A DNA stretch of 64,000 nucleotides from a virus (taxonomy: Duplodnaviria; Heunggongvirae; Uroviricota; Caudoviricetes), in IMG/VR virus record IMGVR_UViG_2778261268_000002. One strand, given 5' to 3'. The translations under genes were made by a program, and so were the position numbers. The notes under the pieces were generated by a model, which was not told the DNA's origin, ran no database searches, and saw only the letters and a program-made list of their open reading frames with translations. This document shows positions 13,879 through 53,567 of the stretch, in pieces; within the stretch, counting starts at the first letter, position 1; each line of letters begins with the position of its first letter.

Positions 13879-15063
13879 TCAAGCCTTAAGAGGCTTTGTG
13901 TATGTTCGTGTAATCCAACCAGTAATAAACTCATCCCCTGATTTAACCTGCACGTAAAGCCATTGACGATCTTTCTTATCTAAAATAGCAACAATTGTGT
14001 TTTTGCCAATGCATTCAATCACTTCACTATTTAAAGAAGGACTGACATGTAATCTTACGTTATCACCAGTTATAAACCTAAAACCATTGAGATCTTCCCA
14101 CTTAATTTCTGTGTTTTCTTTAATTAATTTTTGTTTTGATATTGGTGCATCCTCATATAGGGATACAGAATATGATTCTGTCTTGTGTATTTGCGATAAG
14201 ATTTGTTCTTTTGCATAATCAGCAATAGCGCCAAGCACCACTTCTGTTAAAAGCCACATAATAATAAACTGAAGCGGGTGAGGGAGCGACTTAAATGAAT
14301 CAATGAACGTCGAACTGGATTTATTTAATCCTTTGTCTTGAACATCACTTTCGTTGTGAGATGTTTCAATAGCACCTTCGACATAAGCCTGTGCAATTGA
14401 TGAAAGACTTTGCTCCATTATTTGATGTAATGAAGCCTTTTGCGCTAGGGTATATTGTTTTAATGATTCTTTTATTTCATTGTTTAAATCTATCTTATGA
14501 CTTACATTTTGTCGCAATTCATTAAGTATTGCTTGCATGTTATTTAAACCAGCTTGCTTATTAAGCATCTCGAACTGGTTTCGTAACGGCATAGCAATTT
14601 CTGCCTGCTTCCTTAGCATTTGAATGTATTTATTTGCATCATGCGGGGGATAAACCTTGGCCTGTTTCTGTAGAATTTCAAGAAATTCACGATGCTTGCT
14701 ATTTATTCTTCTCAAGCTCGTCATGTTCGCAAGCTGTTTTTTAACAGAATCACTAAGTAACGATTGCAAATTCAATCTTGCTATTTGTTCTTGAGCTAGC
14801 CGCCCTATTCTTAACTGTTCTTGCAAGTTTGCCATATGTTCTCTATACGATGGAATGATTGCGTTTTTTTGCAGTTCTGCCAACTGTCTAACCAAATTAT
14901 TAGAAGCATATTCTGATTTTAATAAATCACTTGCCGATGTATATCCTGGCATTTTGATTTTACTTAAATTATCACGCCAGGTAATATTTGAATCTCTATT
15001 ATAGAGATCGCTTACTGAGCCAAGTGCAAGTTTTTTAATATCCTTCACTTTATTCACCGTCAT
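13879..15063 (-). CDS. Membrane-anchored coiled-coil protein with C-terminal SH3-like domain (sim-type exclusion operon)
   Basis: 394 aa, AT-rich; one hydrophobic segment FIIMWLLTEVVLGAIADY; C-terminal ...FRFITGDNVRLHVSPSLNSEVIECIG...WLYVQVKSGDEFITGWI. Confidence 0.5.
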   Translation of the reverse strand: MTVNKVKDIKKLALGSVSDLYNRDSNITWRDNLSKIKMPGYTSASDLLKSEYASNNLVRQLAELQKNAIIPSYREHMANLQEQLRIGRLAQEQIARLNLQSLLSDSVKKQLANMTSLRRINSKHREFLEILQKQAKVYPPHDANKYIQMLRKQAEIAMPLRNQFEMLNKQAGLNNMQAILNELRQNVSHKIDLNNEIKESLKQYTLAQKASLHQIMEQSLSSIAQAYVEGAIETSHNESDVQDKGLNKSSSTFIDSFKSLPHPLQFIIMWLLTEVVLGAIADYAKEQILSQIHKTESYSVSLYEDAPISKQKLIKENTEIKWEDLNGFRFITGDNVRLHVSPSLNSEVIECIGKNTIVAILDKKDRQWLYVQVKSGDEFITGWITRTYTKPLKA

Positions 15064-15556
15064 CTTGCTTTAAACATCCATCATTTTTAGCTTCCTTGTA
15101 AATACTTGAAATTCCATCAAGAGAGAATGATGTAATTCGACGCGATCCGATATATACATCCATGTTTTTTTCTTTTGTGGCTGACGCTGACTTCCAAAAA
15201 GAATACCATTCCCTACGATTTGGAGCAGTGTTTTGCGTACCAATATTAAAGCTATCCGGACCAACAATTAAGGTAATTACATCAGCTTTACGAGAAATTG
15301 TGTCGCGTGTAGAAAAATCAGCATTCTCTTTCCCTCCACTTACATACAAATTTCTTCCAGCTATATGATCTTCGGAACCTTCCCTTGCTCCAGCATCACA
15401 AGAAAAGTTAATTGTATAACCATCGTCATTGGTTGCAGAGATTTCTCTCCACCCTTGCTCACCTCCTACCGTCCAAACGGTAGAACCTGCCATTGCTGAT
15501 AATGGCAGAAAAGAGGACATTAATAAAAAGCTATACAATGACTTATATAATTTCAT
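15050..15556 (-). CDS. Secreted protein with signal peptide
   Basis: 168 aa; N-terminus MKLYKSLYSFLLMSSFLPLSAMA; 14-nt overlap with the downstream gene. Confidence 0.5.
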   Translation of the reverse strand: MKLYKSLYSFLLMSSFLPLSAMAGSTVWTVGGEQGWREISATNDDGYTINFSCDAGAREGSEDHIAGRNLYVSGGKENADFSTRDTISRKADVITLIVGPDSFNIGTQNTAPNRREWYSFWKSASATKEKNMDVYIGSRRITSFSLDGISSIYKEAKNDGCLKQDDGE

Positions 15557-15644
15557 ATTTTTATCCTTTTTGTTTTAGATATTATAGGCATAGTCCATAT
15601 TGTTAGATCCACTATGCCCAGAGAATTTAATATTATTCATTAAA

Positions 15645-16136
15645 TTATGGAGCTACACCCGGCCCCCTGGCTCGTTCTTCAAGCGTACCCTGCACGTTTT
15701 GATGGCGCATTCCTGGGGCATTTCTGATTGAGTCAATGCCATTTCTTCCAACATCTTCTTTATTAACGGCATTGCTCGCCACCAGCACACCCCAGCTAGG
15801 GATAGCAAAATCAGGAGCGGTTTCGCATGCCTTTACCATATAATCGAAAGTGCTTCGATTGATCTCATTTGCATCGGGGTTTAATAGGCGAGAATATTGG
15901 TATTTAGCATTTGCGTTGGTTGAGACTTTATACAGTTCCTGCTGCACCATCGCTTCAGAAAGTTTAAGGCGCTTCATATCTGACAGTAACTTCTTGCGCA
16001 TGGATTCGTCTTCACTGACAGCAAATCCGTAAACGTGCCCAAGGTATTTCGTATAATCGGTACAAATCTCCTTTACGCTTGATGCTGCATTAACAGTCCC
16101 AGCCATAAATAATAACGGTAGTAATAGTTTTCTCAT
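15645..16136 (-). CDS. Secreted protein with Sit-like C-terminal motif (SimC-like superinfection-exclusion candidate)
   Basis: 163 aa from ATG at 16136 (RBS AGGTGAGG); signal peptide MRKLLLPLLFMAGTVNA; C-terminal NAPGMRHQNVQGTLEERARGPG is 17/22 identical to Sit NGRGMRREVVQGTLEERARGKG. Confidence 0.55.
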   Translation of the reverse strand: MRKLLLPLLFMAGTVNAASSVKEICTDYTKYLGHVYGFAVSEDESMRKKLLSDMKRLKLSEAMVQQELYKVSTNANAKYQYSRLLNPDANEINRSTFDYMVKACETAPDFAIPSWGVLVASNAVNKEDVGRNGIDSIRNAPGMRHQNVQGTLEERARGPGVAP

Positions 16137-16232
16137 TATAACCTCACCTGCCTTATAACTCATTTAGGGTACATATTTTCGCCTTTAAAAAAAAGAGGTT
16201 ATTAGATCCAATTGTGCATTTATTAAACAAAC

Positions 16233-16249
16233 AATGCTCTAATAAATTT
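16233..16249 (+). promoter_or_regulatory. Repressor (C1-type) operator
   Basis: AATGCTCTAATAAATTT, one mismatch to the recurring ATTGCTCTAATAAATTT motif. Confidence 0.5.
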
Positions 16250-16399
16250 GTATTTTTAAGTCACGAATGCTATCTTTTCGCATCATATTGACCTTTTAAT
16301 CGTTCAGGCTTATAGTTCCGCCGTCGTAGCAAATTCTGCGACCAGGTTTGACAGCCTGAATGATTGTGCGGACAACCGCAGATTTCCGATATTGCGGTA

Positions 16400-16520
16400 T
16401 TTTTGTGTCCGTTAAACCGCGTTACGCCCAAATTATGGTGGGGCGTGATGGGGAGGCTTCGGCCTGCTGGTTTCACAATCGCCAGTCTGTCAACCCTGTC
16501 ACGTCCTGCCACCTGTTTGA
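16400..16520 (+). ncRNA. Candidate c4-type antisense regulatory RNA (boundaries approximate)
   Basis: Non-coding leader between operator and icd/ant with stable hairpins (GGCTTCGGCC, ACGCCC...GGGCGT) and segments complementary to downstream leader sequence. Confidence 0.25.
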
Positions 16521-16563
16521 CAGCGGGTAGCAGGTTGTTAAACCTGATTGTGAGGCCGTAACT

Positions 16564-16785
16564 ATGGGTAATGCCAATCCTTGCGCACGCCAAGAATTCA
16601 TCTGGCGTTTCTATTCCTGTAAAAAACACCACTATCACTTCGTTATCGCAGCAACAGAAGACGAAGCACGCTCTCAATTGCCTGACGGCCCCTGCATTTT
16701 TACTGCCCGTTTTTCAACTAACTCGCGCAATTCACTTAGTTACTGGAGCCTCCCCTTCTCTGCCGACGTTCAGGGGGGTTTATGA
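16564..16785 (+). CDS. icd: Small protein translationally coupled to ant (Icd-like, 73 aa)
   Basis: 73 aa; stop overlaps the ant start (ATGA at 16782-16785). Confidence 0.45.
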   Translation: MGNANPCARQEFIWRFYSCKKHHYHFVIAATEDEARSQLPDGPCIFTARFSTNSRNSLSYWSLPFSADVQGGL

Positions 16786-17825
16786 AAAAACCTCTCGTCA
16801 CCCGTAATGACATAGCCGAAGCGATCGCCCTGCATACTGCCTGTATGCCGACACGGGAGATCCCCGGCGCAATTGCCAACTATTTCATGATAACCAGACG
16901 TTTTTATACCCGAACAGATAAGGCTGTGATCAACAAGCTACTGATAGCCGAGATCAGGGATTATTTGATTGAACAAGGACGTCTACGTTACGCAACAGTG
17001 GCAGCAGAAATGAGAAAGGAGGCACATAGAATGACCGGTAATAATTTGAATGTTGAAAAAACAGCACCTGTTACGTCAGCTACGCCAGCACCAGCCGTGA
17101 ATATCATCCCCAACACCGGAGACACAATCGACAGCCTGACACTGTTAAAGATGGTCAATGAAGCGCGTAAGTTATGTGGGGAACCAGAGGTTCGGAACAA
17201 CAAATTCATCGAAAAAATACTCGACGAATTAGAAGGTGAGGACGGTTACACAAAAAGTGCAACCGTGCCGCCAGGTGGCGGTACGCCTATGGTTGTCATA
17301 ACCATGACCTACAAACAAGCCCTGCGAGTCGCCGCACGCGAATCAAAAGCCGTCCGCCGTTTGCTGATCGACAAACTGGAAGAATTGCAGCAGGCAAACT
17401 CCCCTGCCCCATCGATCCCCCAAACATTACCAGAAGCTCTACGCCTGGCTGCCGAGTTGGCAGAACAGAAAATGCAGCTGGAACAACAGCTGGTGGCCGC
17501 AGCCCCTAAAGTCGATTTTGCCGACCGGGTATCAGTGGCCAATGGAATCCTGATCGGGAACTTTGCAAAGGTCGTTGGACTTAAGCAAAACGCCCTTTTC
17601 TCATGGTTGCGCCAGAACGGCATTCTCATGGCTTTTGGTGCGCGCAAAAACGTACCGCGCCAACAGTACATCAACGCCGGGTATTTCACGGTGAAAGAAG
17701 TGGTGCTGGATGATGAAAATGGCTACCAGATACGGCTGACGCCCCAATTAACGGGTAAAGGCCAGCAGTGGTTAACTCGCAAGCTACTTGATGCTGGTTT
17801 GTTAAAACCAGTAGCAATAGGTTAA
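16782..17825 (+). CDS. ant: Antirepressor (KilAC-type C-terminal domain)
   Basis: 347 aa; C-terminal ...PKVDFADRVSVANGILIGNFAKVVGLKQNALFSWLRQNGIL... paralogous to the KilA C-terminus. Confidence 0.65.
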   Translation: MKKPLVTRNDIAEAIALHTACMPTREIPGAIANYFMITRRFYTRTDKAVINKLLIAEIRDYLIEQGRLRYATVAAEMRKEAHRMTGNNLNVEKTAPVTSATPAPAVNIIPNTGDTIDSLTLLKMVNEARKLCGEPEVRNNKFIEKILDELEGEDGYTKSATVPPGGGTPMVVITMTYKQALRVAARESKAVRRLLIDKLEELQQANSPAPSIPQTLPEALRLAAELAEQKMQLEQQLVAAAPKVDFADRVSVANGILIGNFAKVVGLKQNALFSWLRQNGILMAFGARKNVPRQQYINAGYFTVKEVVLDDENGYQIRLTPQLTGKGQQWLTRKLLDAGLLKPVAIG

Positions 17826-17838
17826 CAAAAGAAAAAAA

Positions 17839-17858
17839 CCTGCCAGCAAACTGGCAGG
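17839..17858 (+). terminator. Rho-independent terminator after ant
   Basis: CCTGCCAG-CAAA-CTGGCAGG followed by TTTC. Confidence 0.55.
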
Positions 17859-17903
17859 TTTCTGAGCAGATCGTCCAACCCGATCTGGATCGGGTCAGAA
17901 AAA

Positions 17904-17920
17904 TTTGCTCTAATAAATTT
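17904..17920 (+). promoter_or_regulatory. Repressor (C1-type) operator upstream of kilA-repL
   Basis: TTTGCTCTAATAAATTT. Confidence 0.55.
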
Positions 17921-17989: not shown

Positions 17990-18790
17990 ATGCAACAAAC
18001 ATTCAATGCGGATATGAATATATCAAACCTTCATCAAAATGTCGATCCTTCAACCACTCTGCCCGTTATTTGTGGTGTTGAAATTACGACCGACCGCGCT
18101 GGCCGTTACAACCTTAATGCTCTACACAGAGCGAGCGGACTCGGTGCCCATAAAGCGCCAGCTCAATGGCTAAGAACGCTGTCAGCTAAACAGCTCATCG
18201 AAGAGCTTGAAAAAGAAACTATGCAGAATTGCATAGTTTCGTTCGAAGGCCGTGGCGGCGGCACTTTTGCCCATGAATTGCTCGCAGTGGAGTACGCTGG
18301 TTGGATTTCTCCCGCGTTTCGGCTGAAGGTAAACCAGACATTTATCGACTATCGAGCTGGAAGATTACAACCTGCTATTCCGAAGAGCCTCCCAGAAGCT
18401 CTCCGTTTGGCTGCCGACCTGGCAGAGCAAAAGCAACGGCTGGAGCAAAAAATGCTGATGGATGCACCTAAAGTCGAATTCGCCGAACGCGTTGCTACCG
18501 CCAGCGGGGTTCTAATCGGCAACTATGCCAAAGTGCTCGGCCTGGGCCAAAACTATCTCTTCACCTGGTTGCGTGATAACGGAATTCTGATCGCAACCGG
18601 TGAACGCAGGAACGTCCCCAAACAAGAATACATATCCCGTGGGTATTTCACCCTTAAAGAAACCGTGATCGATACAAGCAATGGAAGCAGGATTTCTTTC
18701 ACGACTCGTATAACCGGCAAAGGTCAGCAGTGGCTGATGAAGCGATTGCTTGATGCTGGTGTGCTGGTACCTGTCGCGGCAACGCGCTAA
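17990..18790 (+). CDS. kilA: KilA (KilA-N domain plus KilAC domain)
   Basis: 266 aa; N-terminal VICGVEITTDRAGRYNLNALHRASGLG; C-terminus paralogous to Ant. Confidence 0.7.
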   Translation: MQQTFNADMNISNLHQNVDPSTTLPVICGVEITTDRAGRYNLNALHRASGLGAHKAPAQWLRTLSAKQLIEELEKETMQNCIVSFEGRGGGTFAHELLAVEYAGWISPAFRLKVNQTFIDYRAGRLQPAIPKSLPEALRLAADLAEQKQRLEQKMLMDAPKVEFAERVATASGVLIGNYAKVLGLGQNYLFTWLRDNGILIATGERRNVPKQEYISRGYFTLKETVIDTSNGSRISFTTRITGKGQQWLMKRLLDAGVLVPVAATR

Positions 18791-34088: not shown

Positions 34089-34105
34089 ATTGCTCTAATA
34101 AATAT
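34089..34105 (+). promoter_or_regulatory. Repressor (C1-type) operator
   Basis: ATTGCTCTAATAAATAT. Confidence 0.55.
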
Positions 34106-35359: not shown

Positions 35360-37374
35360 GAGAGCTGTGCTATGGATCTGTTTGCAGTGGAATTGAAGCC
35401 GCGAGCATTGCCTGGGAACCGTTGGGTATGCGTCCGGCGTGGTTTGCTGAGATCGAGCCTTTTCCATCTGCCGTTCTTGCGCACCGCTGGCCCCATGTCG
35501 CCAACCTTGGCGACATGACAAAACTCGCCCAAAAAGTCCAGGCAGGAGAAATTGAAGCCCCTGATATGCTCGTCGGGGGTACGCCTTGTCAGGCATTCAG
35601 TATCGCGGGCTTACGTGGTGGGCTTGATGATGAGCGCGGCGCGCTAACTTTGAAGTATGTGGAGCTTGCAAATGCAATTGACGACAAACGGGCTGAGTCC
35701 TTCCTCAAACCAGCAGTTATCGTCTGGGAAAATGTCCCAGGAGTCCTGTCATCAGCAGATAACGCGTTCGGATGTTTCCTTGCCGGATTGGCTGGAGAAG
35801 ATGCGCCATTCGAACCTGGTGATCGACCTGAATCACGAAAAAGTAATACGTTCTGGCGGTGGGATGTCAAAACCGGTTGCCATGCTCCAAAGTGGCCGCA
35901 GTGTGGTTGTATTTATGGACCGCAGCGAAAAGTGGCCTGGAGAATCCTTGATGCCCAATACTTCGGAGTGGCACAACGACGCCGACGCGTGTTTGTTGTC
36001 GCAAGTGCTCGAACAGACCTCGATCCCGCAACGGTACTTTTTGAGTTCGAAGGCGTGCGCCGGAATATTGCGCCGAGCAGAGGCGAGGGGAAGGAAACTA
36101 CCAGATATACTTCAAACATCGCTATCAGAACTTGCGATGATACAAACATAATTGCCATGGCACATGGGCAAGGAGGGGCTGAGATAAAAACCGATAATTC
36201 GGCACCAACTTTGACATGTAACCATGAAGCACCAATTGTATTGCTCGGCGACGGTAGAATGCGCCGTCTTACCCCTGTCGAATGTGAAAGGCTGCAAGGT
36301 TTTCCTGATGGGCATACGTTGATCCCGACGGAAAAGCGTAAAAAAGTTAATTCAGATGAACTGGCATATCTTCGCAATCACTATCCAGATTTAAGCGAAG
36401 AAGAGGTCGCGATGCTTGCAGCTGACGGACCGCGTTACAAAGCGATCGGCAATAGTATGGCAATACCAGTAATGTGCTGGATTGGAGATCGGATTACTAA
36501 GGCCGTATGTCGGCAGAAAGAAGGAAGTGAAACAAAAGAGCGAAAAGTTAAACCAGCGGCAGAATTCGAACGGTCCATATTCAAATGGGCTGGTGGAAAA
36601 TTTGGTGTTCTGGAACAAATCTTTCACTATTTGCCAGAAGGGAAGCGCCTGATTGAACCTTTCGTTGGTGGCGGAGCTGTCTTCATGAATGCCGGATACC
36701 AGGAAAATCTGCTAAATGATGTGAATGCTGACCTGATTAACTTTTACAAGACTCTGCAACGCGAGGCGCATTCACTTATCACTCTGGCACATCGTTTCTT
36801 CCTGGACTACAACACCCAGGAGGGATTCCTGGCAGTACGGAATGCGTTTAACAAACAAGTCTATGATGATTTACATCGCGCAGCGGCGTTTTTGTTCCTG
36901 AACCGACATTGTTTTAATGGATTGACGCGCTACAACCAGGCCGGTGAGTTCAATGTCGGTTATGGGAAGTATAAAACTCCGTATTTCCCATTACAGGAGA
37001 TGGAAGCCTTCCTCGGTGCGGAAGGGCGGTCTGAGTTTGTATGCGGTGATTTTGCAGCAGTGATTGAAGCTGCCGGAGAAGGAGATGTCATCTTTTGCGA
37101 TCCGCCGTATGAACCGCTCCCCAATACAGAGGGGTTTACGAACTATTCCGGTCATGACTTTAAGTTTGAAGAGCAAAAACGCCTGGTGTCTCTGTTGACG
37201 GATGCTCATCGCCGAGGTGCAAAGGTACTCATTACTAACAGTGGCGCGCCAAACGTCAGAGAACTTTATCAGGACAGTGGCTTCAGAGTGGAACCTCTCT
37301 TTGCCAGACGTTCTGTGTCTTGTAAGGGAGACACTCGTGGTGTTGCTCATGACGTTATGGCTATATTGCTCTAA
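35356..37374 (+). CDS. dmt: Bifunctional DNA methyltransferase (N-terminal cytosine-C5, C-terminal Dam-like adenine-N6)
   Basis: GTG start overlapping the hrdC stop; C5 motifs [27 protein letters not shown]; C-terminal WAGGK and DPPY motifs. Confidence 0.8.
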
Positions 37375-37381
37375 TAAATTT
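37365..37381 (+). promoter_or_regulatory. Repressor (C1-type) operator overlapping the dmt stop codon
   Basis: ATTGCTCTAATAAATTT followed by an inverted degenerate copy AAATTTATTAGTGTAAT. Confidence 0.55.
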
Positions 37382-37558
37382 ATTAGTGTAATATCACCTC
37401 AATGAATCGTGATTTATAGAGCGATTTAGCTGTTAGCCGCGACAGGCGCGGCGGCAAGTATGGCGGGGTAGTGACTCCTTCCCCATCATGACGCCGAGTT
37501 GCCAGGTTGACCATACGCCTAAGTGGCAACACCGAAGTGCGTTACGAGCTTCCAGTTT

Positions 37559-53044: not shown

Positions 53045-53551
53045 TTGAGTATTTTCAATAAACACGCACACCAGGAACGTCCGTATATCGTCATAGTAGA
53101 TATTGATGGGACGATATCGGAGGCAACGGAAGACAGACTGCATTTACTTCCACCACCTGGCAAAGGTGCATTAACAGAGCACTGGAACGAGTTTAACCTT
53201 GCCTGTGACACTGATGCTCCCATCACTCCAGTTATTGATATGGTGCGCCAGTTGTCCAGCATTTACACGCTCTGGTTTGTAACCGGGCGCTGTGAGATAG
53301 CCAGGGATAAAACACGAGCTTGGTTGCGTAAGCACGTAACAAATGGGGCTGAGCCTTTGCTATCTATGCGTCCTGCCACCGATGACAGAAATGACGGCCC
53401 TGCAAAGATTGATCTCCTGAAGAAAATTGGTCTAAGTAAAATTGCGTTCGCGCTGGAAGATAAGATTGAAGTGGCGCGTGTTTTCAGGAGTCACGGCGTG
53501 CTTACGTTAATGGTCAGGGAGTATGAAAACGCGCTTCTCCATCAACAATAA
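53045..53551 (+). CDS. HAD-superfamily phosphatase
   Basis: Motif I VIVDIDGT near the N-terminus. Confidence 0.55.
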   Translation: MSIFNKHAHQERPYIVIVDIDGTISEATEDRLHLLPPPGKGALTEHWNEFNLACDTDAPITPVIDMVRQLSSIYTLWFVTGRCEIARDKTRAWLRKHVTNGAEPLLSMRPATDDRNDGPAKIDLLKKIGLSKIAFALEDKIEVARVFRSHGVLTLMVREYENALLHQQ

Positions 53552-53567
53552 TTGCTCTAATAAATAT
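53551..53567 (+). promoter_or_regulatory. Repressor (C1-type) operator
   Basis: ATTGCTCTAATAAATAT. Confidence 0.5.

Follow-up and report, generated by a model that had tools for sequence, protein, structure and literature searches.

The region at positions 16100-17900 of the window, by which we mean the whole 64,000-nt stretch of viral DNA analysed here, is almost certainly the secondary-immunity operon immI, carried by a P1-like phage-plasmid (Punavirus), and most likely operates as its P1 and P7 counterparts do. It represents a known system, the classical P1/P7 immI c4 antisense RNA, described in 1990. Apart from RNA recognition sites that, as judged from their letters, mix P1 and P7 types, the operon is an ordinary immI operon. 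An earlier reading made from the sequence alone had proposed an immI-like, antisense-RNA-controlled antirepressor behind a repressor operator. This is supported by 96% identity to P1 over 1.8 kb and by matches above the gathering score to the Rfam families C4 and c4-a1b1, and the outcome is the rediscovery of a classical system, correctly read, and not a new mechanism.

Organization of the operon

The region aligns with immI of phage P1 at 96.0% identity over 1801 bases, with 100% coverage. Using the P1 annotation and this alignment, all annotated P1 immI features map one-to-one onto the window, as do those annotated in P7 (Table 1). Compared to the P1 operon (Op51-P51a/b-c4-icd-ant1/ant2; AF234172 / NC_005856), the genes follow in the same order, on the same strand and at the same spacing, the operator is identical, Icd and Ant1 have equal lengths, and the two genes are coupled through the same ATGA. 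Downstream, P1 and the window share the kilA-repL lytic replicon with Op53, and KilA is 99.3% identical to that of P1. Upstream of the operator the two differ, since P1 carries simABC where the window has three unrelated ORFs, for which Pfam returned sub-threshold matches only. The P7 operon (AF503408) has the same architecture and about 97% identity from the operator onward, with a sequence upstream of the operator that differs from the window.

Table 1. Features of the immI region, in positions of the window, with the basis of each assignment
Feature	Position	Strand	Basis
C1 repressor operator Op51 (Oc4), AATGCTCTAATAAATTT	16233-16249	+	Identical to P1 'monovalent C1-controlled operator Oc4; former Op51'
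Promoter P51a (P2c4), predicted C1-controlled	16247-16276	+	Position transferred from P1 annotation via alignment
Promoter P51b (P1c4): TTGACC, 17-nt spacer, TATAGT	16288-16316	+	Consensus scan and P1 annotation
Upstream a1/b1 element, two hairpins	16310-16368	+	Rfam c4-a1b1; exact complements of a'/b'
Hairpin and U-run: stem ACCGCA/TGCGGT, 12-nt loop, ATTTTT	16375-16404	+	Rfam isrK; predicted folds
c4 RNA, 77 nt	16437-16513	+	Boundaries from P1 misc_RNA c4
Predicted c4 target on icd-ant mRNA, a2 and b2	16517-16555	+	Exact complements of a' and b'
icd, 73 aa, predicted cell-division inhibitor	16564-16785	+	Similarity to P1 Icd; NCBIfam NF033153
ant1, 347 aa, predicted antirepressor inactivating C1, with nested in-frame ant2	16782-17825	+	Similarity to P1 Ant1; Pfam
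Terminator-like hairpin, CCTGCCAG-CAAA-CTGGCAGG-TTTCT	17839-17863	+	Read directly from the sequence

The repressor-type operator that the sequence-only reading had placed in front of the leader has the same sequence as the annotated P1 Oc4/Op51 and departs from the C1 consensus ATTGCTCTAATAAATTT by one mismatch. It is a 17-bp operator of the C1 type, as found in immI, and it overlaps the -35 region of P51a (-35 at 16247-16253, -10 TATCTT at 16271-16276), a promoter stretch that deviates from P1 at a single base (A for G at 16264). The second promoter, P51b, matches the consensus at 10/12 positions in an independent scan, at coordinates that are exactly those of the P1 annotation of P1c4/P51b, and is located downstream of Op51, outside the operator. 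In the P1 literature, P51b is constitutive and the source of c4 in the lysogen. Scanning the whole window for sites within 3 mismatches of the C1 consensus gave nine operator-like sites against 0.41 expected by chance, a number reached in 0/100 shuffles, and these many sites imply a C1-type repressor. A tblastn search with P1 C1 and Coi found no match to the c1 repressor and coi genes in the 64-kb window, and the cognate repressor is assumed to be encoded elsewhere on the element. About 45 kb separate immC from immI in P1, and c1 may thus fall beyond the window here.

At the protein level, Icd differs from P1 Icd at 4 residues (tblastn 94.6%) and matches the NCBIfam model phage_ICD_like with 52.3 bits for a cut-off of 25. 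Its stop codon overlaps the ant1 start in ATGA (16782-16785), and the 73-aa ORF that had been described as coupled to the antirepressor gene is icd. By analogy with P1, translation of icd would be required for expression of ant. Ant1 shows 22/347 ungapped residue differences from P1 Ant1 (tblastn 94.8%) and carries the Pfam ANT/KilAC domain (PF03374, E 1.3e-30). For the nested ant2, the start given in the P1 annotation corresponds in the sequence to an ATG at 17031 preceded by AAGGAGG. The hairpin behind ant1 is a candidate terminator at the operon end. Codon 2 of icd encodes Gly in the window and Val in all 55 other unique leaders sampled.

The c4 RNA, its target sites and the leader

Rfam C4 (RF01695) matches at 16431-16516 over the full model, with 68.4 bits for a gathering score of 45. 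The sequence-only reading had considered that the RNA boundaries cannot be fixed from sequence; this is superseded by homology to the mapped P1 RNA, which puts c4 at 16437-16513. The 77-nt RNA equals P1 c4 at 75/77 positions, with both differences in b', and folds with an MFE of -42 kcal/mol (z -4.58), no shuffle being as stable. The predicted fold has a 17-bp closing stem and two hairpins, the first of them capped by a UUCG tetraloop (16458-16461), and the RNA ends in a 3' ACC tail. The recognition segment b' (CACAATC, 16474-16480) occupies the 9-nt loop of the second hairpin and a' (CTGTCAA, 16487-16493) is the 7-nt single-stranded joint, both being unpaired in the MFE as well as the centroid structure.

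Both segments have exact 7-nt complements on either side of c4. Segment a' is complementary to TTGACAG at 16348-16354 (a1) and 16517-16523 (a2), and b' to GATTGTG at 16362-16368 (b1) and 16546-16552 (b2), which accounts for the internal complementarity noted earlier from the sequence. That reading had also proposed to search for complementarity between the candidate RNA and the icd/ant ribosome-binding region, and this is where a2 and b2 are found: the duplex at b2 reaches into the icd Shine-Dalgarno sequence GAGG (16552-16555). The energies calculated by RNAduplex are -8.4 kcal/mol (a'/a2) and -11.5 kcal/mol (b'/b2), and the P1 GenBank annotation describes the equivalent sites as 'target site a2/b2 ... 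repression of icd ant translation'. The 'antisense' RNA c4 does not come from the opposite strand, being encoded on the same strand upstream of its target. Upstream of c4, a1/b1 forms a duplicate of the c4 target sites, with a1 in the loop of the second hairpin of the element and b1 just 3' of this hairpin; Rfam c4-a1b1 (RF03163) matches at 16310-16362 with 56 bits, compared to a gathering score of 46.7.

The leader between operator and icd (16250-16563) had been described as about 300 nt of non-coding sequence with stable hairpins, including a UUCG-type loop. Both points hold, as the leader measures 314 nt, contains no conserved ORF, and at 16290-16580 folds far better than chance (z = -5.24). 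When 56 unique leaders are aligned, variation is concentrated at the six a/b sites. The sample of viral contigs includes at least 115 loci whose flanks are complete; in all of them, a' and b' are matched by exact complements both before and after c4, and a1/b1 co-vary with a'/b'. A terminator consensus scan of 16100-17000 called no intrinsic terminator, and within the leader the hairpin and U-run at 16375-16404 are retained as a weak candidate only.

The historical reading of the leader as encoding a small protein repressor, the 'c4 protein', is based on real ORFs, one of 56 aa (16360-16530) and one of 65 aa (16364-16561), and a CDS is annotated over the equivalent stretch in X15639 ('c4: CDS'), RCS47 ('transcriptional regulator C4') and JL22 (gp42, 'hypothetical protein'). 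However, these ORFs over c4 are not conserved among the 56 unique relatives. The start codon of the shorter one is lost because it overlaps the variable b1 site, being ATA, AAA or ACG in 18/56, and its length varies from 17 to 77 codons, while the longer one is missing or truncated in most of them. A 1-nt indel at 16407 also puts the window and P1 in different frames. The variation in the leader tracks RNA complementarity and not codons, the structure fits an RNA family above threshold (Rfam), and P1 c4 has been shown to be an RNA, as related in papers citing Citron & Schuster (1990). We reject a protein-coding leader and regard it as effectively refuted.

Each functional step proposed for this element is transferred from P1 and P7, with c4 processing, its action in trans and the translation-transcription coupling taken from the P1 literature and GenBank annotation. 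Two promoters would produce one + strand transcript with the order leader (a1, b1), c4, (a2, b2), icd and ant1/ant2. C1 bound at Op51 would shut off the upstream P51a, and P51b, not covered by the operator, would go on producing the leader in the lysogen. The 77-nt c4 would be excised from the operon transcript, and its a' and b' would base-pair with a2 and b2 of other mRNA copies, thus covering the icd ribosome-binding site. With icd untranslated, the coupled ant1/ant2 would not be expressed, and premature transcription termination contributes as well in P1. In the lysogen lacking antirepressor, C1 would remain active and lysogeny would be maintained; with c4 insufficient or mismatched, Ant1/Ant2 would inactivate C1. 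The 3' end of c4 (...GCCACC) and its long closing stem resemble a tRNA acceptor stem, which we take to be consistent with excision, as for RNase P substrates. In P1, the 5' end of c4 is generated by RNase P, according to the passage of PMC2190699 that cites Hartmann et al. 1995, and the same mechanism is described for P1 and P7 where PMC8198154, PMC8546580 and PMC12197685 cite Citron & Schuster 1990.

The co-variation of the six sites fits intramolecular pairing equally well, and does not by itself tell whether c4 pairs with the mRNA in trans or the sites pair in cis inside the precursor. The leader could on this ground work in cis alone, by attenuation or by switching between alternative structures, with the a1/b1, a'/b' and a2/b2 sites of a single molecule pairing among themselves and no regulatory RNA diffusing. 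The good fold of the whole leader goes in the same direction, as does the translationally inactive cis structure reported for the long transcript in the IsrK study (PMC4825925). However, c4 forms a domain of its own in the whole-leader MFE fold and leaves a' and b' unpaired. Annotation and literature present P1 c4 as a 77-nt RNA that is processed, acts in trans and is an RNase P substrate, and P1/P7 heteroimmunity requires a diffusible specificity factor. In P1, c4 provided from a separate replicon was reported to repress an icd/ant reporter without its own c4. We consider a switch acting purely in cis very improbable, and retain a diffusible c4 as the preferred reading.

An IsrK-like module upstream of c4

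The a1/b1 sites and the hairpin with its U-run form an IsrK-like module (16323-16404). Rfam isrK (RF01394) matches this segment over the full model (positions 1-77) with 43 bits and an E value of 3.8e-7, below the gathering score of 50, and the match begins 7 nt past the P51b -10 hexamer, at about the expected transcript start. An outer stem pairing 16368-16374 with 16406-16412 encloses the hairpin and U-run. Changes on both strands of the outer stem and of hairpin 1 in a divergent relative (L104) leave them paired in the predicted fold. Matches above the isrK gathering score occur in two lambdoid phages, Stx2a_1447 and mEp460 (67 bits each), and in contig OR845919 (53.8 bits); in all three, C4 follows about 25 nt downstream on the same strand, with 83.6, 83.6 and 80.7 bits, respectively. 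The IsrK segment of locus L125 contains GTGGAAA and CACCAAAG, which are the exact complements of a' TTTCCAC and b' CTTTGGTG in the adjacent C4 and recur downstream, just before the antirepressor Shine-Dalgarno sequence.

These similarities suggest that the a1/b1 segment with the hairpin and U-run is homologous to the Salmonella sRNA IsrK and, given the target mimics in the lambdoid loci, that a1/b1 may have a decoy role. The link to the experimentally studied Gifsy-1 IsrK is made through the Rfam isrK model and the lambdoid homologues. In the isrK-C4-antirepressor modules of Stx2a_1447, mEp460 and, presumably, Gifsy-1 (IsrK by Rfam seed), and in the cA 'secondary immunity repressor' region of N15, the layout is shared with the window: a target-mimic RNA (a1, b1), then C4 (b', a'), then a2/b2 over the Shine-Dalgarno sequence of the antirepressor operon. 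The lambdoid modules differ in that their a/b sequences (GTGGAAA, CACCAAAG) are entirely different, C4 acts directly on the antirepressor's own ribosome-binding site without icd, there is a strong terminator (U7 run) behind a1b1, and the module sits in the lambdoid immunity region without a C1-type operator.

By this homology, the first ~82 nt of the P51b transcript (16323-16404) might be released as an IsrK-type RNA that acts in trans as a decoy, titrating c4 and favouring the antirepressor. Such a decoy would add a layer to the c4 mechanism without excluding it, and immI would be a three-RNA switch of decoy, antisense RNA and mRNA. In Gifsy-1, the short isoform of IsrK ends at a Rho-independent terminator and activates in trans the translation of a small ORF that is AUGA-coupled to the antirepressor (PMC4825925), and in L104 the hairpin is followed by U7. 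In the window, the isrK score stays under the gathering score, the hairpin (16375-16398) encloses a loop of 12 nt, and the U-run behind it is interrupted (AUUUUUGUGU). The terminator consensus scan does not call this structure, and the detailed annotation of P1 lists no terminator there. The conserved outer stem around the U-run suggests instead a structural role in the read-through RNA, and since efficient termination there would starve c4 production, the terminator would be leaky at best. We consider release of such a decoy possible but rather unlikely. If true, it would unify the Salmonella/lambdoid IsrK and P1 c4 systems, which are treated separately in the literature searched; a full-text search of limited coverage found no paper joining IsrK, bacteriophage P1 and antisense. 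The homology offers a testable function for a1/b1, sites that are still 'putative' in the P1 annotation.

Mosaic a and b sites and their predicted specificity

In the window, a', a1 and a2 are of the P1 type and b', b1 and b2 of the P7 type. P1 has the same a sites and carries b' CACTAAC with b1/b2 GTTAGTG, compared to CACAATC with GATTGTG in the window, whereas P7 has identical b sites and carries a' CTGCTAA with a1/a2 TTAGCAG in place of CTGTCAA with TTGACAG. The window is thus neither P1-type nor P7-type at both a and b. When c4 of the window is paired by RNAduplex with the P1 target, the energies are -8.4 kcal/mol at a and -5.0 kcal/mol at b2; with the P7 target they are -3.3 and -11.5 kcal/mol. 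As compared with P1 and P7, it fully matches its own target only (-8.4 and -11.5 kcal/mol), from which we infer a third immI specificity that would be at least partly heteroimmune to both phages. The b2/Shine-Dalgarno pairing retained with the P7 target could give partial cross-immunity.

This a(P1)/b(P7) allele is common, as it is present in Escherichia phage JL22 (ON018986.2) and in 53 P1-like plasmids among 575 PLSDB matches, with 99.3-99.6% identity to the window over 16300-16570. In the sample of viral contigs, 12 combinations of a' and b' alleles were observed, from 2 a-alleles and 7 b-alleles, and in each combination the three copies of a site match. It may be that a and b assort almost freely, giving many mutually heteroimmune immI types, and that a1/b1 adds an IsrK-type decoy to a combinatorial three-RNA system; we offer this combined proposal as a tentative one, with the odds against it. 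If it is true, the a(P1)/b(P7) type of the window would not be fully silenced by c4 of P1 or P7. A full-text literature search of limited coverage found no paper describing further immI specificities. Many P1-like phage-plasmids carry resistance genes, and the natural repertoire of a/b alleles would predict which of them can coexist or superinfect one another.

Records of P1-like phage-plasmids usually lack c4 or show it wrongly as a protein. The RNA is unannotated in JL22 and the 53 plasmids, JL22 having the hypothetical protein gp42 over c4, and in records of lambdoid phages the antirepressor CDSs are extended across isrK-C4.

Identity of the operon and its c4 RNA

Alignment of 16100-17900 with immI, the secondary-immunity operon of phage P1 (AF234172 48007-49806), revealed 96.0% identity over the full length, and P7 shares about 97% identity with the same stretch from the operator onward. 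Base-by-base transfer of the P1 and P7 annotation through a three-way alignment gave the feature coordinates in the table. The Icd, Ant1, and KilA proteins are 94.6%, 94.8%, and 99.3% identical to those of P1, and the family scans are concordant (Icd-like NF033153; ANT/KilAC PF03374). All testable defining features of the P1/P7 immI operon were found in the window element, which is an allelic variant of this family and most likely works like these systems. The system is already known at textbook level, and the variant itself is already in public records, where it is unannotated.

Features of the immI region (window coordinates; comparison loci carry an L number)
Feature	Coordinates	Remarks
C1 operator Op51/Oc4	16233-16249	17-mer same as P1's
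Promoter P51a (P2c4)	16247-16276	overlaps the operator
Promoter P51b (P1c4)	16288-16316	TTGACC-17-TATAGT; independent match in consensus scan
a1 / b1	16348-54 / 16362-68	
c4 RNA	16437-16513	77 nt
a2 / b2	16517-23 / 16546-52	b2 enters the icd SD GAGG (16552-55)
icd	16564-16785	73 aa
ant1	16782-17825	overlaps icd by ATGA
ant2	start 17031	in frame, AAGGAGG ahead of start
Op53, kilA, repL	from 17904	lytic replicon, downstream
JL22 "gp42 hypothetical protein"	L123 3062-3232; 16360-16530	over c4 RNA
isrK-C4 regions	L125 1437-1700; L126 1437-1625; L127 514-709	

The sequence-only reading had correctly proposed an immI-like antisense RNA controlling an antirepressor. The Rfam C4 model (RF01695) scores 68.4 bits at 16431-16516 (gathering score 45), and c4-a1b1 (RF03163) scores 56 bits at 16310-16362 (gathering score 46.7). 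The stable hairpins it described are borne out by folding, with a z-score of -5.24 for the whole leader and of -4.58 for the 77-nt c4 (-42 kcal/mol; 0 of 200 shuffles equally stable), and the UUCG loop lies at 16458-61. In the predicted c4 fold, the recognition sequences b' and a' are both unpaired, in a 9-nt loop and a 7-nt joint. Its remaining elements also held: the internal complementarity is that of a'/b' to a1/b1 and, at the icd ribosome-binding region, to a2/b2, the 73-aa ORF coupled to the antirepressor gene is icd, and the repressor-type operator is Op51. The c4 RNA is "antisense" by base-pairing only, as it is encoded upstream of its target on the same strand.

The mechanism is the one established for P1/P7, as given in GenBank annotations and summarized in PMC8198154, PMC8546580, PMC12197685, and PMC2190699. 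By analogy, the repressor C1 would shut P51a at Op51 and leader transcription from P51b would continue; c4 would be cut from the P51b transcript, with its 5' end made by RNase P. Pairing of a'/b' with a2/b2 would block the icd ribosome-binding site and, because ant expression depends on icd translation, no antirepressor would be made and C1 would remain active. Work from the Schuster laboratory is a further source for this mechanism.

Nine sites resembling the C1 consensus are present in the window, against 0.41 expected. Besides Op51, they lie within 17904-17920, 34089-34105, 37365-37392, 47785-47801, 51409-51474, and 53551-53567. One of these eight is Op53, before kilA-repL, and 37365-37392 holds an overlapping inverted pair resembling a bivalent operator. 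A tblastn search of the 64-kb window gave no match to c1 or coi. Ant1 and KilA share a C-terminal KilAC (ANT) domain (17409-17816 and 18188-18778; 51-65% amino-acid identity), so that two adjacent C1-controlled operons carry paralogous domains.

Specificity of the window allele and covariation among relatives

The a', a1, and a2 sites of the window are of P1 type (CTGTCAA/TTGACAG), and b', b1, and b2 are of P7 type (CACAATC/GATTGTG). The element thus differs from P1 specificity in its b sites and from P7 specificity in its a sites. Predicted duplex energies for the a and b2 sites are -8.4 and -11.5 kcal/mol on its own target, -8.4 and -5.0 on that of P1, and -3.3 and -11.5 on that of P7, so that window c4 is predicted to retain just the a-site pairing with P1 and just the b-site pairing with P7. 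From these energies, we infer that the window allele probably has a distinct immI specificity. One matched site may give partial cross-immunity, and the distinction from P7 is the less certain of the two, since there b2 lies over the SD.

A scan of viral contigs with the c4 stems fixed and the b' loop and a' joint left free returned at least 120 stretches; the count of the stretches listed, with the loci of the window, P1, P7, and JL22 included, is 123 matches. Among these listed matches, there are at least two a' and seven b' alleles in at least 12 combinations (window 16348-16552; comparison loci L003-L122). In at least 115 loci with complete flanks, and in every case, the locus's own a' and b' are exactly complemented both upstream (a1, b1) and downstream (a2, b2). 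This three-way covariation supports the pairing model strongly and independently, and shows that a1/b1, which are just "putative" in the P1 record, are constrained in the same way as the functional target. When the 56 unique leaders are aligned, most of the variation is found at these six short sites and some in the 5' flank near the promoter, and the remainder is nearly invariant. At icd codon 2 (16567-16569), the window has GGT (Gly), and the 55 other unique leaders, as well as P1, P7, and JL22, all have GTT (Val).

The window allele is not rare. It is carried by JL22 (ON018986.2; 99.3% identity) and, with its a(P1)/b(P7) combination, by 12 of the 123 viral-contig matches listed. Among the 575 PLSDB plasmids that match, 53 reach at least 99% identity over 16300-16570 and therefore share the allele, since any other would cost at least six mismatches. 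Owing to the interleaved order of the sites in the DNA (a1-b1 ... b'-a'-a2 ... b2), no single crossover makes such a mosaic. To arise, a P1/P7 recombinant requires either multiple exchanges in a span of about 200 bp or six substitutions made in concert, and both routes point to selection for novel specificities.

A divergent IMG/VR contig (L104), whose c4 stems fit the scan pattern, carries a new b allele, CTTGAAC. In its leader, hairpin 1 is altered on both strands and is still predicted to pair, and the third hairpin is followed by a U7 run, which makes this contig useful material for structure and terminator tests.

The a1/b1 element and IsrK

The a1/b1 leader segment is a homologue of IsrK, a Salmonella sRNA. 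The full Rfam model (isrK, RF01394) matches 16323-16404 with 43 bits (E 3.8e-7), slightly below the gathering score of 50. This segment begins at about the expected P51b transcription start and comprises the a1/b1 hairpins and a hairpin followed by AUUUUU. Scores above the threshold were obtained for the lambdoid phages Stx2a_1447 (67 bits) and mEp460 (67 bits) and for one further contig (53.8 bits); in all three, isrK is followed on the same strand, after about 25 nt, by a strong C4 match. The IsrK segment of Stx2a_1447 carries GTGGAAA and CACCAAAG, the exact complements of a' and b' of the adjoining C4, both repeated downstream directly before the antirepressor SD. IsrK is therefore the counterpart of a1b1 in a C4 module; Rfam places isrK outside the C4 clan, and a 2025 review has IsrK and c4 as separate entries. 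In the experimental study of Gifsy-1 (PMC4825925), IsrK in its short, terminated form acts in trans to activate translation of a small ORF AUGA-coupled to an antirepressor; that paper mentions neither C4 nor P1.

Both this activity and the exact complements beside the lambdoid C4 would fit a1/b1 acting in P1-type immI as a c4 decoy, an added layer of control. Such a role is nevertheless doubtful in the window, where the loop of the hairpin is 12 nt long, the U-run is short and lies within a conserved outer stem, and no terminator is called by the scan; the P1 annotation, too, has no terminator at the corresponding place. A literature search outside the original c4, P1-genome, and D6 papers found no account of the range of recognition alleles or of homology to IsrK. 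The points of residual interest are the combinatorial specificity alleles and the a1b1-IsrK decoy hypothesis.

Annotation over c4 and the region upstream of the operator

Proteins from the ORFs 16360-16530 and 16364-16561 over c4 were rejected, as start codons are lost or lengths changed among relatives. Since these overlapping ORFs are not conserved, the CDS over c4 in X15639, RCS47, and JL22 are artefacts; in X15639 and RCS47, the label is "c4 CDS/transcriptional regulator C4". The "antirepressor/Rha" CDS of Stx2a_1447 and mEp460 runs too far upstream, through isrK and C4 (L125, Stx2a_1447, 1077-2228), and the true start is likely the ATG just after b2-GAGG, at about L125 1680.

Upstream of Op51, P1 has simABC and P7 has upf50.0/upf50.5, whereas the window has three different minus-strand ORFs of 394, 168, and 172 aa (13879-16163). 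Pfam gave only sub-threshold matches for the three (SH3_3, PTPlike_phytase), and the N-terminus of the 172-aa ORF resembles a signal peptide. This stretch next to immI has the look of a hot-spot for cargo or superinfection exclusion.
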